Positions 1 through 22,232 are shown, counted from the stretch's first letter. The stretch is DNA of 24,000 bases from Candidatus Heimdallarchaeota archaeon (GCA_019056785.1 DXJV01000025.1:58207-82206); one strand, 5' to 3'. Notes: generated by a model from the letters alone, not told the origin. Translations and numbers: made by a program.

Positions 1-2292
1 CTTACCACCTGCAAGAACTGAAGAAAACCATCGATTTACATTTCGTAAAGCCTTTAGCTGGGTGCCGAATTTTTCTTTCCCATCGGTTCTGCCGGCTTTA
101 GTTCTAATTTGCTTTTCTAAGTTTTCAATTGCAGTTTTAATTTTAGCGAAATTTTTTAGCAAAACTTGAGAGGAGAAATTGAGCCATAAATACTCCATAA
201 CAAATGGTTTAGCAAGGAGGTCTTCCAAAATACCCTCAGCTTTTAATTCAGGAATCGTTACGTGCAACCGTTTTAGGGACGCTTTAGTTAATGAGGAAAG
301 TTTCTTTTGTTCGACGCTCTTAATGCGGCCGGCCGAAAAAGCCTCTGAAGCCAATTGAAATGGTGTGGGTAGAAGAGCCGAAAATTTGAGCTGTTGAGAA
401 AGGAATTTAACAGTTTTGCGAGAGAATAATTCGCGCGCATTTGGGCGCTTAGAAAGACGTGTAAGAATAGAAGTAAGAACATACAAACTTTGCAAATCGA
501 GAGCAATCTTTTGGATCATCTTACTCATAGTTGTTGGTAGCAGAGGAAACTTTTCAGGGCCAAAGATCTTTTGTAAAATTCGTCCAGTGGTTGCTTCTAG
601 AGAGGCACGGAAGGATTTGAAGAAGTAGGAGAGGTTTTCATAATTCTCAAAACGAGTTGTTGTTGCTTTTGCCTTCGCAGCACGTTTTAAAACCAACTTC
701 TTTGTATCAGCAGGTATTGTAAAGGCTAAGATATGCTCAAACTGCTGGATGCTTTTTTGCAGTAGCTCTTCTGGCTTATATTTCCGACCATAACTTGACT
801 TTGCCAAGCAATCAGTTAGAAGGGTATAAACAATGTCAGGAACCTTTCGGAATTGATAGGGATGGATGACTTGTTGAAGAAAATACAGGAGCATAAGGTC
901 TTGAATTGATGAAGACTTTTCTTGGATAACAGATGAATGAATTTGCCCCACAGAATTATACAGAATGACAGCCTCATCCAGTGTAGTCGAAAATTTCTCG
1001 AGCGTTTTTGTGCATTCTTTTTTAATGTACTGCTCGAGACTTTTAAGCTCAGGATTAGCAATTAGAATAAAAGGATGTTCTTTTTTAATGGACTCCACAA
1101 AACGATTGTAGGAAGAAAGAATGATCTCATTCTTTCGTTTTAGAAAATCATTTGGCGAGTATTTCACAGTAAATTGCTGGATAATGCCTGTCAATTTTTC
1201 AGAAATCCAGCTCTTGTCTGCCAATTCCTCCTTTAACACACGTGCCAGCGCCTTATTTACAACGGACTCTAGCTCTTTTTTATCAAAAACGGTTTCTTTT
1301 GACATGGCAACGAATTTCAAGGGAAATTTATTGAATAATTTCCGGTATAACTCCTGATTCATGTTGCTCAATAATTCTGGGACTTTTGTTTTAAGCTGTT
1401 CAAGTTTGGTGACCATAACCTTTTCGAACAAGAAACTTTCATTTATCAACTCAACATCAGGGATTTCGCCTTTTTCACGTCGAGAAAGCGCACGGGACGA
1501 ATCATTTAATTGTCTAATAATCTTAAGGATTTCGCCGGTAATTTCCTTCCGGGCAACAGATGATTTCTTTCGGAGAAAGTTGTCCAAAATTTTAATAATT
1601 TCACCAAAAGGATTTGGAGATTGAGCAAAAAGAAAGGGGAAAAACGCATCATCTTTAATCCCTTGAATGTAGAGATACTGGGCAAGTATAGTCAGCAATT
1701 CCTTATGGCTTAAATGGGCCAGGCGTTGTGAGACGAATTCATGGGACCATTCTTCAAAAGAACTCTGATCCTCCCAAATGCCCTCCAACACTTTAATGAG
1801 CTTGGGTTTCACGCTTTTTACTAACTGTTTCACTTTATCCGAATGCTTGCGGTAAAGCTGATTAGCAACGGCTGCAATTTGAGCATAAGCTTGATCAATT
1901 TTCGGTACCAAACCGATGGCCGTATACTCATTTTCAAAGGTAGTTACAATTACTCGCGCCAATTCAGTTGCGTACAGAGCAATAAAATCGAGACACTTAT
2001 CTTCCCCTTCAAAGCCTTTAATTGCTATTAAAATAATCGGGGAATGGTCTCCAACCCGGATTGCTTTAGAGGCCAAGATACCATTTTGGAAACGTGAAAG
2101 ATTCAATGTATCAATTGAAGCTGCTGCTTCAAGATTAGGTTCATCACTTGCTAAACCGATTTCTTGTGCAAAGTTTGCTAACGCACCACCGAGAGCACTA
2201 ACTAAAGAAGTATCTGTTTGAATGAATCCTAAAGAAAGGAAATCAGTATTATCTTCTCTACAAATGATGATTTGGGCGTCCAAGACAAACAC
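1..2292 (-). CDS. Giant uncharacterized protein, paralog A. N-terminus is inside the window and the C-terminus runs off the left edge (>=764 aa). Roadblock/LC7- or longin-like N-terminal alpha/beta domain followed by a long helical region.
   Basis: It is missing from the ORF track because its stop lies outside the window. My hand translation of the minus strand from GTG at 2292 is open to position 1; I re-checked 1-840 codon by codon, and the rest was read once. It is colinear with the 1037-aa protein at 5028..8141. Shared blocks (A/B): VSALGGALANFAQEIGLAS/VSALGGALSSFAVEIGLAD, DAFFPFLFAQSP/DAFFPLFFASSP, FPLKFVAMS/YPLKFLAAS, PYQFRKVPDIVYTL/KYQFRPVPDIFYTL, RFENYENLSYFFKSF/KFENIEALSFFSKVF. An alternative start is TTG at 2283, preceded by AGGTG at 6-nt spacing. 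Confidence refers to this being a real CDS; the domain call is weaker. Confidence 0.8.
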   Translation of the reverse strand, partial: MFVLDAQIIICREDNTDFLSLGFIQTDTSLVSALGGALANFAQEIGLASDEPNLEAAASIDTLNLSRFQNGILASKAIRVGDHSPIILIAIKGFEGEDKCLDFIALYATELARVIVTTFENEYTAIGLVPKIDQAYAQIAAVANQLYRKHSDKVKQLVKSVKPKLIKVLEGIWEDQSSFEEWSHEFVSQRLAHLSHKELLTILAQYLYIQGIKDDAFFPFLFAQSPNPFGEIIKILDNFLRKKSSVARKEITGEILKIIRQLNDSSRALSRREKGEIPDVELINESFLFEKVMVTKLEQLKTKVPELLSNMNQELYRKLFNKFPLKFVAMSKETVFDKKELESVVNKALARVLKEELADKSWISEKLTGIIQQFTVKYSPNDFLKRKNEIILSSYNRFVESIKKEHPFILIANPELKSLEQYIKKECTKTLEKFSTTLDEAVILYNSVGQIHSSVIQEKSSSIQDLMLLYFLQQVIHPYQFRKVPDIVYTLLTDCLAKSSYGRKYKPEELLQKSIQQFEHILAFTIPADTKKLVLKRAAKAKATTTRFENYENLSYFFKSFRASLEATTGRILQKIFGPEKFPLLPTTMSKMIQKIALDLQSLYVLTSILTRLSKRPNARELFSRKTVKFLSQQLKFSALLPTPFQLASEAFSAGRIKSVEQKKLSSLTKASLKRLHVTIPELKAEGILEDLLAKPFVMEYLWLNFSSQVLLKNFAKIKTAIENLEKQIRTKAGRTDGKEKFGTQLKALRNVNRWFSSVLAGGK

Positions 2293-2445
2293 CTAATTCT
2301 TCTTGAAAGTTAATTCTTAACTAGAACATCAATAGTAACCATCTCGAATGGGTTCTAAAGATTTTTTCTAGAGGCATGTTTTTTTTTGCTTTTTTATAGA
2401 AAAAGTAATGCTTTTAAAATACTTTGGAATACTAACAATTTTAAG

Positions 2446-2463
2446 TCAGAGACGGGGAGAAGG
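2446..2463 (+). promoter_or_regulatory. G-rich motif TCAGAGACGGGGAGAAGG upstream of the V4R-like gene (copy 1 of 2)
   Basis: It matches 12786-12804 (TCAGAGAGCGGGGAGAAGA) at 17 positions with one 1-nt indel, on the same strand. It lies about 20 nt upstream of an A/T-rich tract (TTTTTTTAATAATAG, about 2483-2497) and 71-128 nt before the possible starts. Confidence 0.35.
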
Positions 2464-2548
2464 TCAAATGCCTCTATCAAAGTTTTTTTAATAATAGATT
2501 CCTAAAGCTGGTTAAAAAGAAGATAGATTCTAATTGTACTTGAAGAGT

Positions 2549-3631
2549 ATGATTTTAAATAAGAAAAAGAATGAAAGGATGAATTCAATCATGGCATTTG
2601 ATATTATAAAAGAACAACGAATGATTCGTACACTGTTTTATTCTTTAATTCACTCGGCAAATTTTCTTGCAGATAGAGCCGACCAGAAACAGAAATTCAT
2701 CCAAGATATTGCTACATTTGTTCGAGAACGCTCCATGGTTGAAGATGATACGCGTGATAAATGTGAGCTTGTAAAAGAGACCTTGGAAATGTTCGGATGG
2801 AAAAGCACCAAAATTGATTATTTGGAAGGAGAGACAGAAGGACGCGTATTTCTAGGGAAAAATCGATATATCCCAAATGATTTAGCTGATTCGCAAGGAG
2901 CGTTAATTGTTCTCCAAGCATTTATCGAGGGGTTGTGTTTTCATTTAATAAAAGCACCAGTAGATGCTCGTGCTGAACTCTCACTTCGCACAGGAAGTTT
3001 CTATGAAATTACTTTCACGCGCAGCAGCAAAGAAGCAACCACTCCAACTTATGTGAAAAAGACACCTCACCTGGCTGAAGAGACAATTGACATGTCAATC
3101 CATGACAACCTAACCATTGAACAGCTTTTCTATCCCATCTTTACCCGTGAAATTCCAACTATGATACTTTTTGACGCTGCCTGGAAAGTCATTCGAGAAT
3201 CCTATGTGGCCAATGCCCTGGGGAGTGAACTCGCCGAACAAGAAGAACTAAAAAAACCGAGTATTAGAAACATTTCCATTATCATTAAAAAGCTAACTGA
3301 GAAAGCTCCTGAAGAAGAAATCTTGAACATGGCAGAAATCATAGGGGAATTTTTTGCCAAATTTTTAAAGACGAAGATTTCAGATGCACTTTATGACAAA
3401 CTGCAACCAACTTTAAAAGACAAGCATGCGACAAGCTACTTGGTGTATTACGATTGTAAACAATTCTGTAGTAATGATCGTTTTATTAACCGCTGCATAT
3501 TCATTCGGGGAATGTGGACCGGCATTTTGAGTGAAGTTTTAGGTTTTCCAATTCAAATAAAGGAAGTCTTCCATGCAGGAAAAAGAGATCGCTACTGTAT
3601 GATTGAATTTGAACCGGAAAAAAATGCATGA
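2549..3631 (+). CDS. Tandem V4R-like (4-vinyl reductase / Bet3-fold family) protein, function unknown
   Basis: The ORF track opens at TTG 2534; in-frame ATGs occur at 2549, 2579 and 2591, so the start is uncertain. The C-terminal half (YLVYYDCKQFCSNDRFINRCIFIRGMWTGILSEVLGFPIQIKEVFHAGKRDRYCMIEFE) matches my memory of the V4R pattern: conserved Cys, G-x-x-x-G, and a terminal C-x-F/I-E-F. The N-terminal half (LEMFGW..GRVFLGKNRY..LQAFIEGLCFHLIKAPVDARAEL..YEITFTR) looks like a second, Cys-poor copy. This is recognised by eye only. Confidence 0.5.
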   Translation: MILNKKKNERMNSIMAFDIIKEQRMIRTLFYSLIHSANFLADRADQKQKFIQDIATFVRERSMVEDDTRDKCELVKETLEMFGWKSTKIDYLEGETEGRVFLGKNRYIPNDLADSQGALIVLQAFIEGLCFHLIKAPVDARAELSLRTGSFYEITFTRSSKEATTPTYVKKTPHLAEETIDMSIHDNLTIEQLFYPIFTREIPTMILFDAAWKVIRESYVANALGSELAEQEELKKPSIRNISIIIKKLTEKAPEEEILNMAEIIGEFFAKFLKTKISDALYDKLQPTLKDKHATSYLVYYDCKQFCSNDRFINRCIFIRGMWTGILSEVLGFPIQIKEVFHAGKRDRYCMIEFEPEKNA

Positions 3632-3651
3632 AAGCGAATGATGAAGCTCTG

Positions 3652-4941
3652 TCACTTTTCAAGCTCATTTGCCATTTGTTGTCGAACTTTTGCTAAGACT
3701 TCAGTTATAGTTAAGCCTGTAGCATTGACAATGGTTTTTACATCTTCAAATTCTGGTTTGAAATGAGCTATTGCGCCTGTTTTTGTATAAGCGATCTTAC
3801 CTTTAAGAGCAAAATGTTTTCCATTAATAACAACCTGAAAATGCTTGATTTCTCTTGGAAGCATCAGCTTTGTTCCACGTAAGATGCGAACGCCTATCGT
3901 ACTTGTTTGATTCATAATTTCTGTTGCAAAACGTTCTATCTCCTCCTCTGCGCACAAAACAGAAACTTTTGTGGCGGGCCGTCCTTTCTTCATGAATAAG
4001 GGTGTAAGATAGACATCCTTTGCACCGAGTTCGAATAATCTTTCGGTTAAGAATCCAATAACTTCTCCGGAGCAATCGTCAAGGTTGGTTTCTATGATAG
4101 CAATCTCCTCTTTGGGGTAGCTTTGCTGCACCAATGAGCCGAGGAATAAACGCAAACTATTCGGGGTGTTTTCAAAAGTTTTTGTCCCGAAACCCGTTCC
4201 CACCTTTTCTAACTGAAAAATGGGTGGTGTGGTAATAAAAGTTGTTTCTAATATTTTTTGTAAAGCAGCAATAATGGCAATTCCTGTTGGAGTAGTTAAT
4301 TCTCCTGCTAGTGGCCCCATCATAACAGGGATAGAGAATTTGTGGGCTATTTCTGTTACAGCCGGCACTGGCACAGGTAAGGTCCCATGAGAGAAGGTAA
4401 TTGTTCCCGAACCCAAAGCAACTGGTAAAACAAAAAGAGTCACTGTAAAAAGCTCCAGACGATCTAAAAGAGTTGCAGCCCCCAATATATCTAGAAAAGT
4501 ATCCAGGGAACCCACTTCATGCAAGTGGGTTTTTTCTACGGGGATATTGTGGGCTGCTGCTTCAGCTTCAAAGAGAATGTGAAATGCTTTCTTACTGAAA
4601 TCTTTCGCTCGTTTTGATAACTGTTGTTGTTTTGTGTACTGGTCAATTATTGCCAGTGCATCAGAAAGCCGGAGGTGCCTTTTTGGTTCTTTAATATGAA
4701 TATGTAATTGAAGACCCTGATGAACAAATTGTTCTATTTGTTCGAGAGTGAGAGTAAATTCCGCCTTCCCCTCCAAACCCGCAGCTTTAACAACATTTGA
4801 AGCGACTAGTTGAAGTGCTTGCAACCTGTTTTTATTTGCCTGTTCTATAGAAAGGTCTGTAAAAAGAAGGTCCAGTAGTGCTGCTAAGAACTTGTCGCCT
4901 GAAATGCCCGTGTGTTGGGCATCAATAATTAATTGTCTCAT
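3652..4941 (-). CDS. larC: LarC-family (DUF111) nickel insertion protein
   Basis: 429-aa ORF. The N-terminus MRQLIIDAQHTGISGDKFLAALLDL matches the characteristic LarC/DUF111 GISGDM-LLgALLDLG opening, and the length is typical. GAGG lies 6 nt upstream of the ATG. Confidence 0.8.
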   Translation of the reverse strand: MRQLIIDAQHTGISGDKFLAALLDLLFTDLSIEQANKNRLQALQLVASNVVKAAGLEGKAEFTLTLEQIEQFVHQGLQLHIHIKEPKRHLRLSDALAIIDQYTKQQQLSKRAKDFSKKAFHILFEAEAAAHNIPVEKTHLHEVGSLDTFLDILGAATLLDRLELFTVTLFVLPVALGSGTITFSHGTLPVPVPAVTEIAHKFSIPVMMGPLAGELTTPTGIAIIAALQKILETTFITTPPIFQLEKVGTGFGTKTFENTPNSLRLFLGSLVQQSYPKEEIAIIETNLDDCSGEVIGFLTERLFELGAKDVYLTPLFMKKGRPATKVSVLCAEEEIERFATEIMNQTSTIGVRILRGTKLMLPREIKHFQVVINGKHFALKGKIAYTKTGAIAHFKPEFEDVKTIVNATGLTITEVLAKVRQQMANELEK

Positions 4942-5027
4942 ACTATCCCTCGAGTTTATTAGTAAATTATCAGTTAGACACTAAATAATAGTCTTTTTGC
5001 TATATGAAATAAAGATAGCCGTCTTTT

Positions 5028-8000
5028 TCAACTTTGGCTGATGGATTCTAAAATCAACTGCTCAAAGAAACGCCCCTTTGTATAGAAAAGGTCTGCCGCT
5101 TGTTGGCCAATATAGGATTCTACCAATCCGGCTAGAGAATCCAATGTTTTGAGAAAATTAGAACGCATATATTCTCGCAAACCTTCATACAGAAAGTTTC
5201 GAATTGTCTGTGACTGTTTTTGCCTGGGAGTGATTAGAGGAAGGAGGGAAGTCAAATTAAGGTTAAGTTCGGTTTTATCTTCTCCCTTTTTAGTGAGTTT
5301 GCAACAATGAGTTTTATCAAAATAAATAGCTAGAAGCTCAGCTGGGAAGGATATCGTAGCCAACGGAAGAAGAAAAGCATTTGCTCTTTGACTATATCTT
5401 ACAAAAAGATCATCTGAAAGTATAGCAAAGACTCGCGAGATAGCAGTTCGCACGGCATGATTGAACAAAACGAAAACTTCATCTTCAATTGTCTTGCGAA
5501 TGATAATTGTCTGTGCTGTTTTCTCGCCCTTAGTCGCTTCTTCCTGTAAATTCATAAGAATTTTTGCTTCAATAGAACCCTTTTGGACATCCTTTTTGAC
5601 CAGATCCCAAAGAAGCTTTTCATGTAATTTATCAAAAAATGCCGAATCACGAACCCATGTTGAGGCATAAACTTCTACAATACGCTGATATCCACCAAAA
5701 GTTGAAGTTAATTGCTTTTTATTTTGTGTAAATGTTGGTGAGTATGCTTTCAAGGAAAATCCGGGGAAGGATTTCTTAGAATAATACTGAATAATCTGTT
5801 TAAGTGGCTTTACTCGACCAAAAAGACGATGGAAAAAGTTCCCCCCAGTAATGAATCCTTTATAGACAGAACAAACAGTTTTTAACGCTTGTAACTTTTG
5901 CAGTTGTTTTTTCTTCGTTTTAATGCTCATTGCATTCTTTTTAATCTGCTCCTCGAATTTTTTCTTTTCTAAGAGGAGAAGGCGATATCGCTGTTTTAAT
6001 GTGGGTTCCAAAAATCTGAAAATTAATTCATTTATTACTATTGGTTCTTTGAGGAGTGCGCCAAGTTTCCCTTGATAAGATAATTCTGGGGCAACGACTT
6101 TAAGAGCGAGCAGCTGTTTCTTTGTCAATCCTTCTGGTTTGAATTCGCCCTGACTCTCTTTGGATTTACTTGTTTTTACCAGAAGAAGAAAACCATGCAA
6201 CAAAGCTTGTAAAGCAATTTCAGTTAACGAGGGGAGGAGAGTTTCAAATGAGAGAGTTTTGGTGAGAACCTTTTTTACGTCTGTCGTAAGGAGCGCTGCA
6301 AAACCCGGCTGATTTTTAAGCCCCTCAAATACCAGTGCTGTTCTATAAAGAGCAGTTGAATAAGTGATCATTTTTGACAAAGAATCATTGAGAGGTTTTG
6401 GTGCGCTTGGTTGTTTAATTGTACCGAAAAATTCCTCCAGCATTTTAACGATAGTGTCTTCCAAGGCATAGGAAAAAACTTTTGAAAAGAAGGAGAGCGC
6501 TTCAATGTTTTCAAATTTCTGTGTGGCTTTTATCCGCTTGATCCTCCGTAAAATTAGGGCACTTGTTTCAGAAGGAATCATTATGTTTGACTCTTTTTCA
6601 AAACTTTTAAACTGCCGCTCGATTAAGAGGAACACTGGATCTTGAGCTTTTTTTGTGGGTTTAACAATATTTGCAAGGATAGTTTTACAGAGAGTGTAAA
6701 AAATATCCGGCACAGGACGGAACTGATATTTCCTGATTAACTTTTGGAGGAAAAATAATTGAACGCATTTTGAAAAAGAGATTGATGGCAGTTGCTGGCT
6801 CTGCTCGTTAATTTGCCGGAGAATATACCATAAAGCCATTGCTTCATCATGAGCAGTTCGATATTGTTCGAAAGCTTCTCTCACAAGAGCAGAAACGAGT
6901 TTCTGGGTTTGGGTTAGATTTGAATCGACAAGTGCTATGAAAGGATATTTTTTCGGGAAAACTTCGAGAAACTTCTCTTTTACTTCGAGAATGATTTCAG
7001 CGGTGTTCTTCATTACCTCTTCAGGGGAATACTGGGAAGAGAGGTCTCGCAAGAGAAGAACTATTTGTTGTGAAAACGCATCCTTCTTTTCCAAACTGCT
7101 ACGCAAAAGTTGTTGGGCTGTAGCATTAAAATTCTCGCGAATAAAATCAATAGTAAGAGGTTTTGTTAAACTTGCTGCAAGAAATTTCAGGGGATATTTT
7201 TGAAAGAGTTTAAGGTAAATTGTAGTAAAGAGGTTTTCGAGAATTTTCCCTCGCGTTTTTTCAAACGAACCTCTTTTTATTACCGAAAGTTGCTCAAATA
7301 ATACATTGCTATTGAAAAAGCCCACCAGAGGAAAGCTACTCCTTTTCTTGGAATGACGACTTTCAGAAAATTGTTGCAACTGGGTAACAAGACGAGTAAT
7401 TTCTTCTGCAAGCTCCTTTCGTGACTGAGCGGACTTTTTCTGCAAAAACTCAAGAACGAATTTCTTTGTAGCAGTTAAATCTGGAGAAGACGCAAAAAAA
7501 AGCGGAAAAAAAGCATCATTACGCGTACCTTCTTGATAAAAAAGCTCGACAAATTTCTCGAGAAAGAAGGAGATTTTTGTGGGAGAAAAAGTGTCTTTTT
7601 GAATGCTCTTAAGAAATAAAGTTTTGTCTTGTTGTTTCTCCCAGAGTTCTTCGAGAAAAACGTTACACGAAGAAGCAATTAGCTGAGCGAACTCCTTCCA
7701 AGTGTTTGGTGAGCTTTTATAAAGTACATAAGCAACTGCAGGAACAACTTTTACCCCTTCTACGAATCTCGGAACCGCACCACGACTTTGATATACTTTT
7801 TCAAATTTAGTGAGAATAGCCTTAGCTAAAGCAGAGCCATATTCAAGGAGAAACATTTGATGATATGGTTCTAAATCGGGAAAGTCTCGAACAGCGATCA
7901 TAAGTAATGGATGATGTTCCCCAATTGTCAACCATTTTGAAATGAGAATGCCATTTTTAAACCGAGAAAAGTTTGCTTGGGTTGCTTCGCTATCAGCAAG

Positions 8001-8141
8001 ACCAATTTCTACGGCAAAACTGGATAAAGCCCCACCAAGTGCAGAAACCAGTGTAGCATCATTTTGAATGGACCCCATTGAGAAAAAACTCGTGCTGTCC
8101 TCTTGTGAGATAATTATTTGTGAGACCACTTCGACCAACAA
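5028..8141 (-). CDS. Giant uncharacterized protein, paralog B (1037 aa). Roadblock/LC7- or longin-like N-terminal domain followed by about 900 aa of mostly helical sequence.
   Basis: Uninterrupted 1037-codon ORF. GGAG lies 4 nt before TTG 8141 and 7 nt before TTG 8138. Residues 1-120 read as strand-strand-helix-strand-strand-helix (IIISQEDS / FFSMG / ATLVSALGGALSSFAVEIGL / SRFKNGILISKWL / LLMIAVRD / MFLLEYGSALAKAILTKF). That order is typical of Roadblock/MglB and longin platform domains. It is colinear with the partial CDS at 1..2292. I recognise no other domain. Confidence 0.85.
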   Translation of the reverse strand: MLVEVVSQIIISQEDSTSFFSMGSIQNDATLVSALGGALSSFAVEIGLADSEATQANFSRFKNGILISKWLTIGEHHPLLMIAVRDFPDLEPYHQMFLLEYGSALAKAILTKFEKVYQSRGAVPRFVEGVKVVPAVAYVLYKSSPNTWKEFAQLIASSCNVFLEELWEKQQDKTLFLKSIQKDTFSPTKISFFLEKFVELFYQEGTRNDAFFPLFFASSPDLTATKKFVLEFLQKKSAQSRKELAEEITRLVTQLQQFSESRHSKKRSSFPLVGFFNSNVLFEQLSVIKRGSFEKTRGKILENLFTTIYLKLFQKYPLKFLAASLTKPLTIDFIRENFNATAQQLLRSSLEKKDAFSQQIVLLLRDLSSQYSPEEVMKNTAEIILEVKEKFLEVFPKKYPFIALVDSNLTQTQKLVSALVREAFEQYRTAHDEAMALWYILRQINEQSQQLPSISFSKCVQLFFLQKLIRKYQFRPVPDIFYTLCKTILANIVKPTKKAQDPVFLLIERQFKSFEKESNIMIPSETSALILRRIKRIKATQKFENIEALSFFSKVFSYALEDTIVKMLEEFFGTIKQPSAPKPLNDSLSKMITYSTALYRTALVFEGLKNQPGFAALLTTDVKKVLTKTLSFETLLPSLTEIALQALLHGFLLLVKTSKSKESQGEFKPEGLTKKQLLALKVVAPELSYQGKLGALLKEPIVINELIFRFLEPTLKQRYRLLLLEKKKFEEQIKKNAMSIKTKKKQLQKLQALKTVCSVYKGFITGGNFFHRLFGRVKPLKQIIQYYSKKSFPGFSLKAYSPTFTQNKKQLTSTFGGYQRIVEVYASTWVRDSAFFDKLHEKLLWDLVKKDVQKGSIEAKILMNLQEEATKGEKTAQTIIIRKTIEDEVFVLFNHAVRTAISRVFAILSDDLFVRYSQRANAFLLPLATISFPAELLAIYFDKTHCCKLTKKGEDKTELNLNLTSLLPLITPRQKQSQTIRNFLYEGLREYMRSNFLKTLDSLAGLVESYIGQQAADLFYTKGRFFEQLILESISQS

Positions 8142-8401
8142 CCGACTCCTTCTTCAGCTCAAAAAAACCTTATAATTCATTTGTAGTTACTTCGTTTTTG
8201 TTAATTTCCTTCTTTGGCTGTTTTAATGTTTGTGATAGCGACATTTATGACGCATTTAAAAAGAGCTTCTTTCAATAACTATAAAGAAGTAAAAAAGGAA
8301 AAGAAAAATAAGAGAAAAAAATCATTTCCAAATCTAATTATATGAGAATAACTAACGATTCTATTGTAAGTAAATGAAACGCCTTTTGTGGTGAAAAAAA
8401 A

Positions 8402-11047
8402 ATGAAATACGAATTTGGTCGCTCCCCTTGTCATTATCTTCAAACGGTTCTTGAAAAATTGGCTGATCTTAATAGCACAATTGTAGATCCACATGATCGA
8501 GCATTACTAGCACGTGCAAATATGCTTGCATATGAAATTACGGACCATAAACAATATGCAACCAATGCCCGCCGGTTAGGGAAAGAAATTTTGAGAGACA
8601 TCTTAACAAAGGAAAGTTATATTCCGAAAGAAAATGAATTAAAATTACTCTATCTGTTGCAGAAACAAGGGTCTATCACTCTCGATGAGAGTCAAATCGA
8701 TAGATTACTGGAACTCCAGGAAAATTGGCCGGACCCAGATGATAGAATTAGCGCATTATTAGTGGCCTATAATCTATCTCTCGAAAAAACCGAATTGAAA
8801 GAAAAAATTTATGCACTTCTTGAATCTTTACCCTTTGAAGAACGATTGTGGCCATATGCAACAGCCTACATAATGTCTAATCGTGAAATCGAGTTGCCGG
8901 CAAACATTATTGAAATTGCACGGAAAATATCTGGGACAAACAATACTGCAGCGTATCTGGATAAGGTCATCTGGATCAAGTCAATGTATGACCCGGACTT
9001 TGGGCCGCGTAATGTAGAAGCCCGAAAAGAAATCGCAGAAGAAATTGCGCAATGCGATGAGCCTCGAGATTTATTGTTTGTTTTAGGGTTTATCAGAAAC
9101 GAAAATGTTTTGGAAAACATTCAAAGAGATATAGATGAAATTAGTAGTAGCCTTAAGGATTTCTCACCTAAAATAAACCTTCCTATTAATGCCCGTCAAT
9201 CGCCCACACAAGATGCAATTATCTTAGGGCGGAAAGGTTCTGTAATTAAAGACATCGGTTGCCAGGGAACACTCTATCTTGGACGGATTTCAGAAAAAGG
9301 CGCCCACGGCCTTTATGGTAAGAAAGTACTTGTTGATGCAGGTTACCCACATATATTCTTCATCAGCGGCCATCGTGGCTCAGGAAAAAGCTATACACTT
9401 GGTGTTATTGCAGAAGAATTAGCAAAAGCAAAGCTGGGTGTAGGAACAATCATCATTGACCCGATAGGCGTTTTTTGGGCACTGAAAAAGCAAAACAGCG
9501 ATGAAGGAGAGAATTTGCTTCTCCAACAATGGGGATTAAAGCCAGAAACAATAGACAATGTTGAAGTATTCACCCCTATCGGCATTTTCGAGAAATTTGG
9601 TGACGAAACGATAGATTCACCTTTTGCCCTGAAACCATCAGACCTTCATATTGAAGATTGGTGCCGCACCTTTGACATCGACCGGTATGAGATTCGTGGA
9701 ACTGTTTTAGAGAAAGCTCTAAAAATAGTAGCCAGGGAAAAGTCAGACTTTTCAATTGACGATATTATCGCTGCATTAGATGATCCAGCAATTACTAATA
9801 CTTATCGAAGTGACTCCATTCAAGCCATTCGATCCCGTATGGAAGCGGCAAAGGAATGGGGCATTTTCTCAGGAAAGGGTACACCACTTTCAAGGTTAAG
9901 CTCACCAAATAAAATTTCAGTCCTTGACATTAGCAACCCGCGGATTGGTGATAGCCTTCGTGCTTTGTTGGTTGGTATCATTGCCCGTAAAATCCTCGAA
10001 GCACGCATACGTTCTTCTCGGGGGGAAATGTTCGAAGTGTCTGGAGAAGAAGATGGCTCAATTCCAGTCACATGGCTGCTTATTGATGAAGCACATGTTT
10101 TAGTGCCAGCGAATAAGAAAACAGCGGCTTCAGACCCCTTAATTGAGTATGCAAAGCAAGGAAGAAAACCGGGTTGCGCCCTCGTGCTTGTTACACAACA
10201 ACCATCTGCCATGCATAAGGATATTATGAGCCAAATTGATGTAATGATAACCCACCTTTTGACTTTTGATGATGATATTCGAGCTTTTCTTAAACGAGTG
10301 CCAGCTTCTGTCCCGGACCAATTTGAAGATTCGGACTTTATCAGAAGCATGCCTACAGGAGTAGGAATGATTTCTGACCAGTTAACACAAAACCGCAGTT
10401 TTATAGTGAAAATTCGCCCCCGAGTCTCACTCCATGCAGGAAGAGAAGCATTACCTAAATCACTCCGAAGAAAAATACGCGCCAAACATGGTGGAGAAGT
10501 GGCTTTTGGGAAGCGAGATGTCTTAGTGGCAACAGCAATCAGTGAAGAGTCTCAACCCGACGAGAAACCCTCGAGCATCCCGGAACCCGTCCCAGAAAAA
10601 CCAAAAGTAAAGCAACCAGTAAAAGCAAAAAGAAAACATCCAGCAAAAGCAATTGATTTGCCCATACCTGAACCATCAAAATTACCCGAAAAAATGATTC
10701 TGAACATTTTAGAAAGAAAACTCGAATATGGACACAATACATTCCTCTTTGATGGCTCAAAATCAGTGCGCTTCGATAAACTCCAGCGCTCGGGGTTCTT
10801 AAGTGGCTCTATCGAAGAAAACTTGCCCCCAATCATTGCTGAGCTGGAAAGAATTGGTTGGGAAATAAAGGCAATTGTCCCTGAAAAAACCTTCGTCGTT
10901 ATTCTCATGCAGCTAGAATCAGCCTCATTGGGTATTTCATATGCCATATTTAAAGGCGACACCGCCCTCTCATTCATTGTTGTTGCAAAAGAGCGGTTCA
11001 AGAAGAGTATCTACGACAAAATCTTCAATTTAAAACAAAGTAGGTGA
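8402..11047 (+). CDS. HerA/FtsK-superfamily (COG0433/DUF87-type) P-loop ATPase with an extra N-terminal helical region (about 290 aa) and an extra C-terminal domain behind a Lys/Pro-rich linker
   Basis: Walker A is GHRGSGKSYTLGV and Walker B is VTWLLIDEAHVLVP. The HerA-typical GRKPGCALVLVTQQPSAMHKDIMSQIDVMITHLL block is present. A HAS-barrel-like stretch (AIILGRKGSVIKDIGCQGTLYLGRI) precedes the P-loop. GGTGA at 8390-8394 lies 7 nt before the ATG. The linker is PEPVPEKPKVKQPVKAKRKHPAKAIDLPIPEP, followed by about 170 aa that I cannot assign. Confidence 0.8.
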   Translation: MKYEFGRSPCHYLQTVLEKLADLNSTIVDPHDRALLARANMLAYEITDHKQYATNARRLGKEILRDILTKESYIPKENELKLLYLLQKQGSITLDESQIDRLLELQENWPDPDDRISALLVAYNLSLEKTELKEKIYALLESLPFEERLWPYATAYIMSNREIELPANIIEIARKISGTNNTAAYLDKVIWIKSMYDPDFGPRNVEARKEIAEEIAQCDEPRDLLFVLGFIRNENVLENIQRDIDEISSSLKDFSPKINLPINARQSPTQDAIILGRKGSVIKDIGCQGTLYLGRISEKGAHGLYGKKVLVDAGYPHIFFISGHRGSGKSYTLGVIAEELAKAKLGVGTIIIDPIGVFWALKKQNSDEGENLLLQQWGLKPETIDNVEVFTPIGIFEKFGDETIDSPFALKPSDLHIEDWCRTFDIDRYEIRGTVLEKALKIVAREKSDFSIDDIIAALDDPAITNTYRSDSIQAIRSRMEAAKEWGIFSGKGTPLSRLSSPNKISVLDISNPRIGDSLRALLVGIIARKILEARIRSSRGEMFEVSGEEDGSIPVTWLLIDEAHVLVPANKKTAASDPLIEYAKQGRKPGCALVLVTQQPSAMHKDIMSQIDVMITHLLTFDDDIRAFLKRVPASVPDQFEDSDFIRSMPTGVGMISDQLTQNRSFIVKIRPRVSLHAGREALPKSLRRKIRAKHGGEVAFGKRDVLVATAISEESQPDEKPSSIPEPVPEKPKVKQPVKAKRKHPAKAIDLPIPEPSKLPEKMILNILERKLEYGHNTFLFDGSKSVRFDKLQRSGFLSGSIEENLPPIIAELERIGWEIKAIVPEKTFVVILMQLESASLGISYAIFKGDTALSFIVVAKERFKKSIYDKIFNLKQSR

Positions 11048-11134: not shown

Positions 11135-12163
11135 GTGATTTGGCCGATAATTAACCCACTCATCTCAAAAGCAGAAGCATCAAACATAACAGTAGAAGAA
11201 CTGACAAAAGAGCTGAAAGAGGGCATCTGGAAGATCTTTTTCCAAACCTTGCAATTGAATAGAAATAAAGAAGAAGAAACAGCAATTGCCAACCAGCTCA
11301 AAAAACTGGCAAATGAAAATATAATAGATTTCGTTCTAGACCTTATAAAAGATTTTTCTTTCAGCTTTCATGAAGACTTCACAGAGGGTGTCAGCCCAGA
11401 AGAAGTAACAGAATCACTAGAGCAATTCATAAACCAACAAGTCATCATCGAATGGATCGATTATCTCGTTGAGTTCTCCATTACCCCCTTGTTAATTCTC
11501 TCATTAAAAGAGCCATATAAAATCAAAAAGGGGAAAGAAATTATTACAAGGATCTTTTTAGCGATAGTCCAGGGATTGATAGGAAAAGAAGAAGCAGAAA
11601 CACAATTACAAACAGTTTTAACCAACGAATTGCAAGTACCGGAAGAACCGCTCCGATTCGTGAGCGCAATGGCTCGAACAATAGCAAGGGGAATGGAAAA
11701 GTTTGGACTCACCGGTTTAGCAAAAATTGCAGAAGAAACGCTCAAAGAAAAGAAAGAAATAACAATACAACGAAAATACACCAATGTTCGACAGGCTGCA
11801 AAAGAAATCATTTTCGACCGAGAGAAAGTAATGGAAGAATGGGAAAAGAATATTTTACAACCAGCAACAATAGGACTACGGATGGCCGGTAAAGAGCGAT
11901 ATAAAGGATTCATTACCAGCTGTAAAAAGAATTTTGAATTGTTTCTTGACCAATTGCTCTCGGCGAGCGATTTTGAAAAAAGAGTCGATAAAGAGTTGCG
12001 AAAGTTCGGCGGCAAAGAAGAAGAATTAATGCAACCGATTCGAGACTCCATAGTAAGCTCAGTTAAATTTCTCGAACTCGCACGAATTGATGACCCTACA
12101 CTTAACTTATTAATGATGATCATCGATGAGGAACGTGAAATTACAAAAAGAAACTGCACCTAA
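11135..12163 (+). CDS. Uncharacterized Glu/Lys-rich, predominantly helical protein (342 aa from GTG)
   Basis: Long ORF in the same frame as the upstream ATPase gene. It is open from the codon right after that gene's TGA (11048), and GTG 11135 is the first canonical start. I recognise no family. The antisense 232-aa ORF (11461..12159) looks like a shadow ORF. Confidence 0.6.
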   Translation: MIWPIINPLISKAEASNITVEELTKELKEGIWKIFFQTLQLNRNKEEETAIANQLKKLANENIIDFVLDLIKDFSFSFHEDFTEGVSPEEVTESLEQFINQQVIIEWIDYLVEFSITPLLILSLKEPYKIKKGKEIITRIFLAIVQGLIGKEEAETQLQTVLTNELQVPEEPLRFVSAMARTIARGMEKFGLTGLAKIAEETLKEKKEITIQRKYTNVRQAAKEIIFDREKVMEEWEKNILQPATIGLRMAGKERYKGFITSCKKNFELFLDQLLSASDFEKRVDKELRKFGGKEEELMQPIRDSIVSSVKFLELARIDDPTLNLLMMIIDEEREITKRNCT

Positions 12164-12804: not shown

Positions 12805-12860
12805 ACCCAAAAATTCAAATAAAATTATTGTTGAAAAAAAATGAAAGGTTGGTTATAAGA

Positions 12861-13529
12861 ATGCCCAAAATCAAGAATTGGCTTTTTGGCAAAGAGAAGC
12901 CTAAGGACACCGAAAGTATTGCTAAGATTCGCCGTGTCATTAATAAGTATACTTTACAGTCTCGTCGTCTTTCCCAGCAAGCAGATGAGCAGAAAGATCT
13001 TGCTAAGGAGATGATGAAGAGCGGCAACAAGGCTGGCGCCAAGCAAGCTTTGATGCGTCGTCAGCTTTATCTTAAAAAACTCAACGAGACTCAGAACAAG
13101 ATTTTAAATTTACAAGGTATGATCGAATCCATTTCCGAAGCAAAAGATGTTGCTGAAACTACAAAAGCCATTCAGGAAGGTGTCACTGTTATTGAAGATA
13201 CCTTAAAAGATGTCTCTCCTGCGGACACCGAGCGCGCCATGCTTGAAATGCAGTCCTCTATGGAGAAGGTTTCCTTTGCATCTGAAGCATTAGCTGATAC
13301 CTCCTTCTCCGAAACCGAGCTCGATATTGATATGGAAGATGCTATTGATCAAGAGATGAAAGAGCTCGAGATGGAGCTTTCCCTTGGTCAAGTGGAAGAG
13401 CTTCCGGATGTTTCCACTACAACACCTATTAAAACAACTCCTCAAAAAGAGAGAAAAGAAAAAGACGAAGTTAGTGAGGAGATATCCGAACTCCGGAAAA
13501 AGATCGAACGCGAACGCAGCGGCGCATGA
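12861..13529 (+). CDS. ESCRT-III family protein, Snf7/CHMP4 (Vps20/32/60)-like
   Basis: The ORF track opens at TTG 12828; I prefer ATG 12861 (MPKIKNWLFGKEKP), which resembles the short amphipathic Snf7 N-terminus. The core NKAGAKQALMRRQLYLKKLNETQNKILNLQGMIESISEAKDVAETTKAIQEGVTVIEDTLKDVSPADTERAMLEMQ parallels human CHMP4B NKRAALQALKRKKRYEKQLAQIDGTLSTIEFQREALENANTNTEVLKNMGYAAKAMKAAHDNMDIDKVDELMQDI, recalled from memory. There is an acidic C-terminal region and a terminal amphipathic helix, EEISELRKKIERER. Confidence 0.85.
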   Translation: MPKIKNWLFGKEKPKDTESIAKIRRVINKYTLQSRRLSQQADEQKDLAKEMMKSGNKAGAKQALMRRQLYLKKLNETQNKILNLQGMIESISEAKDVAETTKAIQEGVTVIEDTLKDVSPADTERAMLEMQSSMEKVSFASEALADTSFSETELDIDMEDAIDQEMKELEMELSLGQVEELPDVSTTTPIKTTPQKERKEKDEVSEEISELRKKIERERSGA

Positions 13530-13591: not shown

Positions 13592-13864
13592 TTAGTCTTC
13601 TCCCACAGCCATATAAACCATATCGTCTTTGATCGCTTCAATGCGTCGTTTATTTTTTGTTATAAATTGGACATGGACGATGCCCCGGATCTCGAGTTCC
13701 ATTAACGCCTCGTTTATCTCTGTCTTGGACACCTCGCCAAATTCCATGGACAAGATCTTGATAAGCTCATCATCTATGAGCACTCCTTGACGCTTCTCAA
13801 TTGCCATCAATATTGCAGTAGATAGTGGCATTGTCTTCCAAATGGCTTTTTTTTCTTTGGACAT
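13592..13864 (-). CDS. Small (90 aa) winged-helix-like protein, function unknown
   Basis: Clean ORF. AAGGAG lies 12 nt upstream of the ATG. The pattern LSTAILMAIEKRQGVLIDDELIKILSMEFGEVSKTEINEALMELEIRGIVHVQFITKNKRRIEAI reads as helix-turn-helix plus a beta wing. The fold call is by eye only. Confidence 0.55.
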   Translation of the reverse strand: MSKEKKAIWKTMPLSTAILMAIEKRQGVLIDDELIKILSMEFGEVSKTEINEALMELEIRGIVHVQFITKNKRRIEAIKDDMVYMAVGED

Positions 13865-14037: not shown

Positions 14038-16230
14038 TTAAATGGTGGTTGGAAGTTGTGAAACTTCAATAGAGGCGCGCTTGAAATTCTCTTTGGCTTT
14101 TTCATAGTACTTCATTGTCTCTGGTGTGATGGAGGCATGCACTTTCTTTCTCGCAAGTTCAAAGTGCTTCAAAGCAACAATTTCACTATTCATATCTTCT
14201 CGCAAGGATAGCATTGCTGCTTCTCTACAGAGTGATTCGATATCTGCACCTGAAAAGCCTTCAATACTCTTTGCTATTTGCTCTAGGTTTACATCGTCTG
14301 CCAAAGGCATGTTTTTAGTGAAGATTTTCAAAATACGCAAGCGTGCTTTTTGATTTGGTGGGGGAACTAAGACATATCTATCGAACCTTCCAGGGCGTAA
14401 CAAGGCAGGGTCGACAATATCAGGCCGATTTGTTGCGGCAATAATAACTACTTGTCTAATCATTTCCAGCCCGTCTATTTCTGTTAAGAGCTGGCTAATC
14501 ACTCGTTCGGTCGTCCCCGAGTCACCAAAACCACTTCCCCGTCGCGGGGCAAGAGCATCGATCTCATCAAAGAAAACAATAGTAGGAGCAGACATTTTCG
14601 CCTTCCGGAATATTTCGCGAACAGCCTTCTCCGATTCACCCACCCATTTGCTCATCACTTCAGGGCCTTTAATACTGATGAAATTCACTTCACTTTCTGT
14701 TGCAACGGCTTTTGCCAAGAGGGTTTTCCCACAACCTGGTGGACCGAAAAGTAATACGCCTCGCGGTGGTTTAATTCCCATGCGTGTGAAGGATTCTTTG
14801 AATTTCAAGGGCCATTCTATCGCCTCCTTCAACTCACGGATTTGAGCATCTAAGCCGCCAATATCTGACCAGCGAATATTAGGTATTTCAGTAAATACTT
14901 CTCGTATAGCAGAGGGTTGTATCTCTTTCATTGCGGCCATTATATCATCTTGAGTGACAATTAACTTATCCAGTAATTCAGGAGTAATGACTTTATCGGC
15001 AAAATCAATATCAGGTAGATAGCGCCTAAGAGCTTTCATTGCAGATTCGCGGCATAAAGCTTGCAAATCCGCCCCAACATAGCCATGGGTTTTTTCAGCA
15101 ATTAAATCGAGATTGACATCCGGTGCTAACGGCATTCCTCGAGAGTGAATGAGAAGTATCTCTCGCCGTCCGTCTCTGTCAGGAACGCCAATTTCAATTT
15201 CCCTGTCAAATCGTCCGGGGCGGCGCAATGCTGGATCAATAGCATTGGGTCGATTCGTTGCGCCAATTACCATTACTTCACCACGAGAAACCATGCCGTC
15301 CATCAGGGCAAGTAATTGAGCAACAACTCGACGTTCAACCTCACCGGTTACATCTGCACGTTTACTGGCAATAGCATCTAATTCATCAATGAAAATAATC
15401 GTAGGAGCCTTAGCATTTGCTTCTTTAAAGATCTGACGTAAACGCTGTTCTGACTCACCGTAAAATTTAGACATGATCTCCGGGCCGTTAATAGTGATGA
15501 AATTTGAGGCACTTTCATTAGCCACAGCTTTTGCGATGAGCGTCTTTCCACAACCTGGTGGTCCATGTAAAAGTACCCCCTTTGGTGGGTCAATACCAAG
15601 CTTCTGGAACAATTCAGGGTGTTTCATTGGTAGCTCAACCATCTCACGGATGCGTCGAATTTGATCACCCAACCCACCGATGTCTTCATAAGAGGTTCGT
15701 GGGAGGTCCTCTTCAGATACTTGAATTGGTTTATCGATGACCTTTAATTCTGTATCCTCAGTTATACGGACAATCCCCTTCGGAGTAGTGGAGGTCACAG
15801 TAAAGGGCAGAGATTTTCCGAGAATGGGAATGAGAACAGTATCATCCTCTGTTAGGGGATAGCCCAATAATTTCCGTTTTACAAAATTCTCGAAGCTATA
15901 ATCAATTGCTACAGGTGTTTGAAATGGTGCCAGAGTGACAATTTTCGCATTTTTTGCGTCGGCTTTTGTAACAGTCACTTTTTCAGAAAGACTGACGCCG
16001 GCATTCTTACGCAGAAGTTTATCCATACGAATTAGCCCAGCATTTTGATCCTCAGGATAGGCCGGCCAGGCAATTGCAGCTGTGACTTTCTTCCCTTTAA
16101 TTTCCACAACATCACCCGTAGTGACATTAATTTGTCTCATTGAGAGACCATCAATTCGGACTTTTTGGCGGCCGATATCCCGTTGCCTAGCTTCAGCAAC
16201 TTTGAGGGTAATACTTGGTTTAGTAGGCAT
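14038..16230 (-). CDS. cdc48: CDC48/VCP/p97-type AAA+ ATPase (N-domain plus two AAA modules)
   Basis: There are two Walker A motifs (both GPPGCGKT) and two Walker B motifs ([16 protein letters not shown]). The N-terminal [34 protein letters not shown] matches the CDC48 N-domain. I prefer ATG 16230, with GAGG about 9 nt upstream; the track start TTG 16239 is the alternative. Confidence 0.95.
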
Positions 16231-16369
16231 AATTCTCAACCTCTGTCAATAGAATTTAAGCGGGTAGCTTTCTGCTTTAAATATTTTTGGCTGTTCATTT
16301 ACTATTTCAAGTTTTGCTTTTCTTTACAAAAATTGAGCTTAGAGAATTATTAAAGACTCGTTTGTGGGC

Positions 16370-16399
16370 AAAAACAAAGAAAAAAGAAAAAACAAACCC
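16370..16399 (-). terminator. Oligo-T tract directly after the cysS stop
   Basis: The minus strand reads GGGTTTGTTTTTTCTTTTTTCTTTGTTTTTG immediately 3' of the TAA. This resembles archaeal-style oligo-T termination signals. There is no experimental support. Confidence 0.35.
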
Positions 16400-17848: not shown

Positions 17849-18063
17849 CTTTTTTTCACCGATTTTCCTTTGTTCTTTATACTTCTTTAACTGTGTGCAA
17901 TAGTATTTTAATTTTCATAGTTTGCTAGTCTTATAAAAGGATTTATGCAATATTTGCTTATTTCAGGAGAAAGCATCTTAGTAGAAGAAAGCTCAAGAAG
18001 TAAGTATTATAAATCACAAGTTCTATGAGATAGATAGATTATTTTAATCAACAAACAGGTGAA

Positions 18064-19476: not shown

Positions 19477-19511
19477 GAACCTTCCGTTCTTTTCTTCCTT
19501 TTTCTTTTTTT
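19475..19511 (+). terminator. 6-bp hairpin (AAGAAC-CTTCC-GTTCTT) overlapping the stop codon, followed by an extended T-rich tract
   Basis: Read directly: the stem is 19475-80 / 19486-91, then TTCTTCCTTTTTCTTTTTTT. Confidence 0.4.
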
Positions 19512-19676
19512 GCTAAATAGTAAAAAAAGAACGAACATTTTTCATGCTTGTCTTTTAATTCCTTTTTTTTACTATCTACCTTTCACGTAAAGACATATTT
19601 GCAAAGAATAAAACTATGACAACAAAAGCAATCACAAGCACTATATACCAATACTCGGAAACAATTATCAGTGGCA

Positions 19677-20039
19677 ATGAGCGCAAATACACTTCTTCTC
19701 ATCAAATCAGAATTAGAAGAAGCGAAGAAAAAAGGCGTACAATTTTGCTCCATTGCCTTTAAATAGCTTGAGCAGTTAACCCCTTCTATTAAAAGAGAGC
19801 TGTACAAAGAAACAGGTTTTGACCATTACGTAATCCCCCTCACTTTTTACTTAAAGCCTATTCCCAAATTCTTCAAGCTAACTAAGAAAATTAGTGAGAT
19901 AATTGATTGCCCTGGCATAATTATTTCCTATAGTGTTGAGTCTGTTGTGCTTTTACCCCTGTTCCCACATGAAACGTTTTTTTGGCATCTGGGTTTTCTC
20001 AGAGCAGATCATAAAGCAACAACTAGTGGCATACAATGA
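19677..20039 (+). pseudogene. Candidate disrupted or recoded ORF: 120 codons open except for one in-frame TAG at 19764-19766
   Basis: Reading from ATG 19677 gives MSANTLLLIKSELEEAKKKGVQFCSIAFK-TAG-LEQLTPSIKRELYKETGFDHYVIPLTFYLKPIPKFFKLTKKISEIIDCPGIIISYSVESVVLLPLFPHETFFWHLGFLRADHKATTSGIQ-TGA. After the TAG there are 90 stop-free codons with no ATG/GTG/TTG for 60 codons. This argues that the frame began upstream of the TAG. I recognise no homology. Confidence 0.25.
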
Positions 20040-20158
20040 ATTATTTTCCCTTGCAGAAAAGACTCAAGTTTTACATTTCAGCTTAATTAAGAATAGTTTA
20101 ATAATTGACTTTCCTATTTACTAACAGACGCCGTTTATTACTCCGGGGTTAATAAGGA

Positions 20159-21421: not shown

Positions 21422-21440
21422 AGGGCAAAGATTATTCAAT

Positions 21441-22226: not shown

Positions 22227-22232
22227 TATCCA

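Follow-up and report, generated by a model that had tools for sequence, protein, structure and literature searches.

We analyzed a 24,000-nucleotide stretch of a Candidatus Heimdallarchaeota archaeon genome (GCA_019056785.1, DXJV01000025.1:58207-82206), referred to below as the window. Its positions 1 to 8,141 carry genes for two giant paralogous proteins, which we label gA and gB, and between these giants lie a gene for a 346-aa protein of predicted V4R/Bet3 fold and an orphan larC gene. The four genes form a clade-restricted and strictly conserved gene block of Heimdallarchaeia-type Asgard archaea. An earlier reading of the window sequence (the original prediction) had taken the giants and the V4R gene for a candidate module resembling the transport protein particle (TRAPP) or a guanine nucleotide exchange factor (GEF). 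The block is real, uncharacterized, and clade-specific; a TRAPP/GEF-like function is plausible but unproven. The features of the block are as follows.

1..2292, minus strand: N-terminal 764 aa of gA (giant paralog A), with a GTG start at 2292; the gene runs off the window
1909..2292, minus strand: N-terminal domain of gA, about 128 aa, homologous by alignment to the longin-order domain of gB; putative fold, taken from the gB model
2293..2590, no strand: AT-rich intergenic stretch from which gA and the V4R-fold gene diverge, the presumed site of both promoters
2591..3631, plus strand: predicted tandem V4R/Bet3-fold protein, 346 aa (AlphaFold2 (AF2), Foldseek)
3652..4941, minus strand: predicted LarC (fused LarC1 and LarC2), the nickel-pincer cofactor nickel insertase, 429 aa (Pfam, NCBIfam)
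5028..8141, minus strand: gB (giant paralog B), 1037 aa, with a TTG start
7782..8141, minus strand: N-terminal domain of gB, aa 1-120, predicted β-β-α-β-β-β-α(-α), longin-type (DSSP of the AF2 model)
5112..5513, minus strand: C-terminal α/β segment of gB, aa 877-1010 (DSSP of the AF2 model; predicted local distance difference test (pLDDT) 85-93)
8142..8401, no strand: AT-rich intergenic stretch from which gB and the HerA-like ATPase gene diverge, an arrangement conserved across loci

Both giants thus have non-ATG start codons in the window. The mechanical open reading frame (ORF) of the V4R-fold gene spans 2534..3631, with a TTG at 2534; its orthologues begin at the ATG at 2591, which gives 346 aa in place of the 360 aa first proposed. 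The base composition is even along the window, and all block proteins are free of transmembrane-like segments. A k-mer search for a regulatory motif common to the two divergent intergenic regions gave only AT-rich, TATA-like words.

The giant paralogs

BLASTP of gB (5028..8141) against the window part of gA (1..2292), both on the minus strand, returned a single colinear alignment of 771 columns over the 764 aa of gA, with 32% identity and an E-value of 1e-112. Colinearity at this level of significance identifies gA and gB as true, strongly diverged paralogs rather than a chance match, and confirms the original prediction on this point. Full-length gA orthologues have 1034-1045 aa. The most conserved stretch of the giant family is an invariant LVSALGGAL..FA.E.GL motif, common to both paralogs, which forms the first helix of the N-terminal domain.

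A search with gB yielded 27 clusters of proteins of about 1030-1060 aa, without exception from Heimdall-, Gerd-, or "Asgard group" metagenome-assembled genomes (MAGs); a 100% match to gB is annotated as Candidatus Gerdarchaeota. A 28-member profile of the giants, searched against 1.84 billion representative proteins without a word index, retrieved only 18 proteins, all of them family members or fragments from Heimdallarchaeia-type Asgard archaea. Scanning of 185,579 species-representative genomes gave 13 loci, of which 12 are titled Heimdallarchaeota or Promethearchaeati. The remaining locus (L007) is titled Candidatus Bathyarchaeia, yet it carries the same block.

In a neighbor-joining tree the gA and gB sequences fall into separate clades. 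Four loci (L005, L013, L017, and L018) lack gB, as a fifth (L026) probably does; in these, larC lies directly opposite the HerA-like gene. The gA proteins of the gB-less genomes are nested within the gA clade, which indicates that the duplication is old and that gB was lost secondarily. Given this subclade, gA is evidently able to function alone.

Longin domains are α/β sandwiches of about 120 aa with the order β1-β2-α1-β3-β4-β5-α2-α3. The Roadblock/LC7 domains of MglB and LAMTOR have the order α1-β1-β2-α2-β3-β4-β5, with a helix before the first hairpin. An AF2 model of gB was built on 28 sequences and had a pLDDT of 81.9 and a predicted template modeling score (pTM) of 0.57. In the N-terminal domain of this model DSSP assigned strands to residues 7-12, 19-23, 57-61, 64-70, and 79-85 and helices to residues 29-48, 92-112, and 114-118. 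Residues 7-118 are therefore modeled in the longin order, β-β-α-β-β-β-α-α; the helix before β1 that would make the order Roadblock is absent. The original prediction of a Roadblock/longin-like N-terminal domain was upheld in its order of strands and helices, to which one strand is added, and in its longin alternative; its Roadblock alternative was not upheld, and sequence profiles did not recover either domain.

Residues 126-905 of the gB model are helical save for one hairpin and make up an all-helical body of about 750 aa. The C-terminal α/β segment (aa 877-1010) has the order α-β-β-α-β-β-(β)-α, which recalls the Roadblock topology with an α2 of only 8 residues. In the model this segment is possibly a second platform-like module, of Roadblock order. 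Two long helices after it close the chain.

A Foldseek search of the PDB with the gB model returned a list in which about 40 of the top 50 matches belong to the Roadblock/longin superfamily, with 80-155 aligned columns, probabilities of 0.8-1.0, and target-normalized TM-scores (TMt) of 0.4-0.56. Among them are the longin-domain proteins Sec22b, Lst4, Fuzzy-Inturned, Mon1-Ccz1, Nprl2/3 of GATOR1, the Lokiarchaeial longin 8yqg, and sedlin (probability 0.85-0.99, TMt 0.45-0.56, E 0.14-0.45), together with LAMTOR2 and other Ragulator subunits, MglB, and dynein LC7.

Other matches of the giants were rejected. The best nominal Foldseek match of the whole protein, Nap1/NCKAP1 of the WAVE complex (E 3.3e-3), had a probability of 0.30, a TM-score of 0.08, and a root mean square deviation of 43 Å, and was dismissed as nonspecific helical similarity; SETX and Kap114 were rejected likewise. 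A Band_7/SPFH match found in 11 of the 28 giants (gB aa ~335-396, window ~6954-7139) is weak and partial, covering only about 55 helical residues and profile positions 79-132 of 176, and the best instance (E 6.2e-5) lies exactly at the cut-off. It is probably an artifact of helix composition and not an SPFH domain.

The V4R-fold protein and LarC

The 346-aa protein belongs to a family of 31 clusters, each of about 345 aa, whose range is as narrow as that of the giants. One orthologue has been named "predicted hydrocarbon binding protein" by JGI. Members of the V4R/Bet3 (TRAPPC3) superfamily have a two-layer fold of four helices and a four-stranded sheet. The AF2 model of the 346-aa protein, built on a 30-sequence alignment (pLDDT 84.8, pTM 0.53), consists of two halves, aa 1-145 (N-half) and aa 166-346 (C-half), with a disordered linker (residues 149-165) between them. 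DSSP of the model gives both halves the same order of N-terminal helices, β hairpin, long helix, and second hairpin. Foldseek matches in the PDB are almost all TRAPPC3/Bet3/TPC6, the V4R domains of PoxR and MopR, H-NOX/soluble guanylate cyclase, and BcsD (probability 0.97-1.0, TMt 0.41-0.54, E 0.015-0.1). TRAPPC3 chains are the top matches, and PoxR and H-NOX score equally well; the output does not show which half matched.

The model and these matches support a V4R/Bet3-superfamily fold for the 346-aa protein, and its tandem character is supported by predicted topology only. Of the two-V4R protein first proposed, the fold and the reality of the ORF have thus held up; the length had to be shortened, and no sequence profile reached its threshold. 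The C-terminal part of the NCBIfam MsvR model matched weakly (E 0.022), and sequence and profile searches of the PDB with the 346-aa protein gave nothing relevant.

Three cysteines of the C-half (C293, C302, and C336) are invariant and a fourth (C289) is nearly so, and they are accompanied by a HAGKRD motif. The N-half has no such cysteines. Tran et al. 2024 (PMC10933270) describe a Cys-based Zn site that tethers sheet and helix in PoxR and Thor-TRAPPC3, and the pattern of conserved cysteines seen here would fit that site. The same paper describes the structural neighborhood of V4R, Bet3, and H-NOX for Thor-TRAPPC3, and the binding of small hydrophobic ligands by V4R, PoxR, H-NOX, and TRAPPC3.

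The larC product matches Pfam Ni_insertion (PF01969) at 4.5e-104 and scores 164.6 bits with the LarC1 model TIGR00299 (cut-off 90) and 124.9 bits with the LarC2 model NF052512 (cut-off 50). Judged by these profiles, the gene encodes an intact, bona fide LarC. It lies exactly 86 bp downstream of gB on the same strand and is an orphan, both as originally predicted: Pfam and NCBIfam detected no larA, larB, or larE among the scanned window ORFs or in the fetched loci of the clade. LarC is found between the V4R gene and the gB or HerA-like gene in every locus. A LarA (Lar_N/LarA_C) gene was seen at L021:1593-2861 on a Jordarchaeial contig, about 8 kb upstream of a Snf7/HerA-like/p345/Snf7 module of the kind described below. 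This is the sole other Lar-pathway gene seen near a HerA-like ATPase and is probably a coincidence.

The constant presence of an intact larC raises the alternative that the block is a cofactor or small-molecule module, in which LarC would make the nickel-pincer nucleotide or metallate a related ligand, the V4R protein would carry or sense the product, and the giants would be clients or scaffolds. LarC is never separated from the V4R gene, although their convergent orientation excludes co-transcription of the two; gB and larC are co-directional and 53-135 bp apart across loci. Nothing in the giants is enzyme-like. The conserved Cys cluster and the hydrophobic ligands reported for the V4R, PoxR, H-NOX, and TRAPPC3 proteins would suit a carrier or sensor. 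The absence of larA, larB, and larE from the window and from every fetched clade locus argues the other way, and no LarC-V4R link turned up in the literature, in which no search was aimed at one. We regard such a module as quite unlikely.

Conserved neighborhood and the ESCRT-III-linked ATPase

ORFs were called in 19 fetched loci and matched to the window proteins. Every locus with enough flank has the same order: the gene for a 342-aa protein (p342) and the HerA-like gene, transcribed toward p342; divergent from these, gB where present, followed by larC; convergent with larC, the V4R gene; and divergent from the V4R gene, gA, which was found in every locus with the relevant flank. The three genes of the original prediction, four with larC, thus adjoin one another in every related genome examined. 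The divergent gA/V4R arrangement is conserved in 13 loci with a spacer of 230-330 bp, and the convergent V4R and larC genes are separated by about 10-45 bp (20 bp in the window). Identity to the respective window protein is 69-82% for the HerA-like protein, 52-61% for LarC, 42-57% for gA, 36-51% for gB, 36-47% for p342, and 44-62% for the V4R protein, for which the top values come from short fragments in L019. The corresponding values are 82-85% for Snf7, 85-89% for CDC48, and 66% for cysteinyl-tRNA synthetase (CysRS).

In one locus (L006) an insertion of about 7 kb (L006:2542-9391) separates the HerA-like gene from gB and leaves gB-LarC-V4R-gA intact. The insertion carries genes for a 935-aa leucine-rich repeat (LRR)-Roc GTPase and a 1206-aa TSP3-repeat protein.

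The genomes sampled are rather closely related, and the genes may have stayed neighbors by inherited synteny only, with no functional relation between the giants, the V4R protein, LarC, and the HerA-like module. The same loci also keep the order of genes for an ADP-forming CoA ligase, an M42 peptidase, and TldD/PmbA downstream of gA; since these housekeeping genes are syntenic too, conserved order alone is weak evidence of shared function, and part of it is inherited gene order. The 82-89% identity of CDC48 and Snf7 across loci shows that divergence is moderate. The V4R gene points away from gA and toward larC and thus has no partner with which it is co-transcribed, so that the block is not one operon. 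On the other hand, the block is invariant in 13 or more loci while the far flanks differ, with Snf7 and CDC48 adjacent in some loci and absent in L001, L003, L007, and L016. The adjacency holds across genomes with CysRS about 66% identical, was not broken by the insertion in L006, and has never been broken between proteins that evolve as fast as these (36-55% identity for the giants); the giant and V4R-fold families also share the same narrow phyletic range. Inherited order as the whole explanation thus seems to us possible but rather unlikely.

[quoted passage not shown]

8402..11047, plus strand: HerA/FtsK-type ATPase (DUF87), 881 aa (Pfam, motifs)
11135..12163, plus strand: p342, a helical 342-aa protein whose gene always follows the HerA-like gene
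12828..13529, plus strand: Snf7-family ESCRT-III protein (Pfam Snf7 at 1.9e-16)
13592-13864, minus strand: p90, a protein of 90 aa encoded between Snf7 and CDC48, kept in position and with 74-82% identity across loci

The HerA-like protein matches PF01935 at 3.2e-15, above the cut-off, and has the Walker A sequence GHRGSGKS and the Walker B sequence LLIDEAH. It consists of a 300-aa helical N-terminal region, the DUF87 core, a Lys/Pro-rich linker, and a C-terminal domain, and its profile matches HerA structures in the PDB down to 3.4e-12. Full-length homologues with 33-37% identity occur in Frey-/Jord-, Loki-, Hel-, Hod-, and Promethearchaeial MAGs. A role in a defense system was considered and rejected, as PADLOC gave only generic HerA matches and the ATPase keeps 69-82% identity at its fixed locus.

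In each of the five distant contexts that were fetched, the gene directly downstream of a Snf7 gene is a HerA-like homologue. A gene for a 344-346-aa protein then follows in four of the five, and a second Snf7 gene comes after it in three (L021-L023). In L020 and L024 the Snf7, ATPase, and 344-aa protein genes are part of the canonical cluster with Vps4, ESCRT-II, EAP30, Vps28, UEV/E2, ubiquitin, E1, and an Arf/Ras-like GTPase. The GTPase has 214 aa and a weak RING signal, and its gene lies two genes downstream of the HerA-like/p344 pair (L020:14467-15111 and L024:10457-11101). The p342 of the window is homologous to the 344-aa proteins of these two clusters (E 1e-6 to 4e-7), and the window Snf7 is orthologous to the Snf7 downstream of the HerA-like/p345 genes in Loki-, Jord-, and Helarchaeial loci (E-values of 1e-16 to 1e-19 by phmmer). 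A non-Asgard HerA-like homologue has no Snf7 gene nearby. The HerA-like ATPase, the ~345-aa protein, and Snf7 are thus a trio conserved across Asgard lineages (Hod/Prometh, Jord/Frey, Loki, and Hel). Profile hmmsearch found no homologue of the giants or of the V4R protein in L020-L025, and taken together these links show that the window joins an Asgard-wide ESCRT-III-linked module to a clade-specific block. This HerA-like ATPase was not described in the Asgard ESCRT literature searched, an absence that is no proof of novelty; the conserved HerA-like/p345 pair may so far have been missed as a component of the Asgard ESCRT system in whose clusters it lies.

This neighborhood suggests a further alternative: the giants may act as accessory scaffolds for the machinery of the HerA-like ATPase and ESCRT-III, during cell division, in the formation of vesicles, or in clearing DNA from the scission site. 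The platform domain would then serve for dimerization or ATPase docking only, and no GTPase would be involved. Longin and Roadblock domains also have non-GTPase roles (PMC10933270). The embedding of the trio in Vps4/ESCRT-I/II/ubiquitin clusters (L020 and L024) would give such scaffolds a setting; the trio elsewhere in Asgard archaea, with neither giant nor V4R homologue in L020-L025, shows that the ATPase does not need them. The gene divergently transcribed from the HerA-like gene is always gB or, where gB is lost, larC, and the latter case fits a scaffolding role poorly. We consider this explanation unlikely.

As to the rest of the window, p90 matches no family and might be a small protein that is winged-helix-like. 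The order CDC48, p90, Snf7 is kept in L005, L010, L013, and L017. Positions 14038-24000 hold genes for the CDC48 AAA ATPase and CysRS, for a DUF6159 protein that passes the membrane several times, for a GtrA-GT2 glycosyltransferase fusion, and for a metal ABC transporter of the ZnuABC type.

Relation to known systems and a possible mode of action

Eukaryotic GTPase regulators, TRAPP, Ragulator, and Mon1-Ccz1 among them, draw on longin/Roadblock platforms and Bet3-fold proteins as their building blocks. Like the block with its predicted folds, the TRAPP core pairs the Bet3/V4R fold (Bet3/TRAPPC3, Trs33/TRAPPC6, and Trs31/TRAPPC5) with longin-type platforms (Bet5/TRAPPC1, Trs23/TRAPPC4, and Trs20/TRAPPC2). 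The Bet3 fold of TRAPP works as a dimer, whereas in the block two predicted copies are fused in one chain. The predicted longin domain of the block heads a 1040-aa helical protein and not a 140-220-aa subunit, and the V4R protein keeps a putative Cys4 site, as prokaryotic V4R proteins do, and has no Rab gene nearby. The block holds a single Bet3-fold gene and lacks small longin subunits. It does not belong to TRAPP; the resemblance concerns a possible way of working.

Tran et al. 2024 (PMC10933270) describe TRAPPC3/V4R proteins and longin/Roadblock proteins of Asgard archaea, among them a Heimdall longin-TRAPPC3 fusion that already suggested a functional link between the two folds. Those proteins share with the block the phylum and the two folds predicted here, and the Zn-Cys4 site of their V4R/TRAPPC3 fold has a putative counterpart in the block. 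They are small, with one or two domains, whereas in the block V4R would occur in tandem, predicted longin domains head two giants, and the link is by adjacency and not by fusion.

The longin heterodimers that regulate GTPases (Mon1-Ccz1, Fuzzy-Inturned, Nprl2-Nprl3, FLCN-FNIP, and C9orf72-SMCR8) are, like gA and gB with their predicted longin-type heads, diverged paralogs that each open with a longin-type domain, and several of their proteins occur in the Foldseek list of the giant. They continue with further longin or DENN modules, whereas gA and gB continue with about 750 aa of predicted, unmatched helices. The lineage with gA only would correspond to the presumed ancestral homodimer of such pairs. 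The V4R sensors PoxR, MopR, and MsvR and the H-NOX proteins have the same predicted fold as the 346-aa protein, with a putative Cys-based metal site in its C-half; the 346-aa protein differs in having no DNA-binding or AAA+ output domain and in having two predicted V4R-like halves, of which the N-half has no Cys ligands. The HerA/FtsK ATPases, among them the HerA-NurA repair helicase and anti-phage HerA, have the DUF87/HerA core and the Walker A and B motifs in common with the 881-aa neighbor. Unlike these, the 881-aa protein has no NurA, Sir2, or nuclease partner and has large additional N- and C-terminal regions; it is highly conserved at a single locus and is tied across Asgard archaea to Snf7 genes and not to repair or defense genes.

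A number of observations weigh against a TRAPP- or GEF-like complex, besides the syntenic housekeeping genes and the mixed gene orientations already mentioned. Pfam and NCBIfam gave no orthology to the TRAPP subunits Bet3, Bet5, Trs20, Trs23, Trs31, or Trs33. For the giants, no Longin or Robl_LC7 match above threshold was obtained with Pfam and NCBIfam on single sequences and on the 28 members, with phmmer and profile searches of the PDB sequences, or among the 1.84 billion proteins; PADLOC likewise assigned no domain to the giants or to the 346-aa protein. Pfam V4R (PF02830) was reached by only one of the 30 members of the 346-aa family (E 0.12) with no profile above threshold, and the local alignment of N-half and C-half by hhalign is in register and not significant (E 0.11). 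On its predicted structure the 346-aa protein cannot be assigned to Bet3 over prokaryotic V4R or H-NOX.

The structural evidence has its own weak points. The pTM is about 0.55 in both models, Foldseek E-values across the two range from 0.015 to 0.5, and no PDB match of gB reached an E-value of 1e-3 or below. Foldseek gives no query coordinates, and hence some of the gB matches may fall on the C-terminal α/β segment. Judged by the lengths aligned and by the longin type of the targets, the complete N-terminal domain of the model would fit best. The pLDDT of this domain is only 43-89 and falls partly below 60, and the low values at its C-terminal end would suit a partner-binding surface. The helical remainder of the giant, about 900 aa, gave no match in the AF2 and Foldseek analysis, tether-like and GEF-like structures included.

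The search for a GTPase gave little. No small-GTPase domain was found by Pfam or NCBIfam in any scanned ORF of the window, as had been noted originally, and no Rab in the window or in the ±10-kb flanks of L001, L003, and L005. A strict G1/G3/G4 small-GTPase expression found nothing in any locus and is uninformative, as it also missed the known Roc of L006. That Roc is the only GTPase seen near the block and lies inside the insertion, so that there is no conserved GTPase neighbor. Finally, LarC has no place in any trafficking model. The original idea of a TRAPP/GEF-like module thus stands insofar as both fold guesses survived structure prediction and the neighbors are ESCRT-III-linked; it lacks TRAPP subunit orthology and a conserved GTPase neighbor.

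Overall, the best explanation we can offer, and a tentative one, is that the longin-headed giants and a docked V4R protein form a soluble complex that acts on a nucleotide-dependent membrane partner. Roadblock and longin proteins generally pair through their platform domains. By analogy, gA and gB would dimerize through theirs, as an A-B heterodimer or, in the subclade without gB, as an A-A homodimer, and their long helical bodies would serve as a scaffold. The tandem V4R protein would be an intramolecular Bet3/V4R dimer that docks on this scaffold, its C-half carrying a Cys4 site, probably for Zn, and probably a pocket for a small hydrophobic ligand. Such a complex would be cytosolic and, like the TRAPP core, be built from longin and Bet3 folds. 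It would most likely recruit or switch a nucleotide-dependent partner at the membrane, which could be a small GTPase with its gene elsewhere or else the HerA-like/ESCRT-III machinery next door.

A more far-reaching version of this soluble-complex explanation is speculative and, in our estimate, very unlikely to hold in full. It would make the block an Asgard complex of a longin-headed giant heterodimer and a duplicated Bet3-fold protein, a sister solution to the TRAPP and Mon1-Ccz1 platforms and not their ancestor, which would work with the ESCRT-III-associated HerA-like ATPase and couple a nucleotide switch to membrane remodeling in archaea closely related to eukaryotes.

How longin/Roadblock and Bet3 folds were first combined is an open question in eukaryogenesis. 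The locus described here genetically couples predicted forms of both folds in a new architecture, within Heimdallarchaeia-type Asgard archaea. The paralog pair exists beside a natural single-paralog lineage, with an ESCRT-III-linked ATPase next door. The block and its neighbors make up a clonable set of four to six soluble proteins with which complex formation, ligand binding, and coupling to a GTPase or to ESCRT may be tested.

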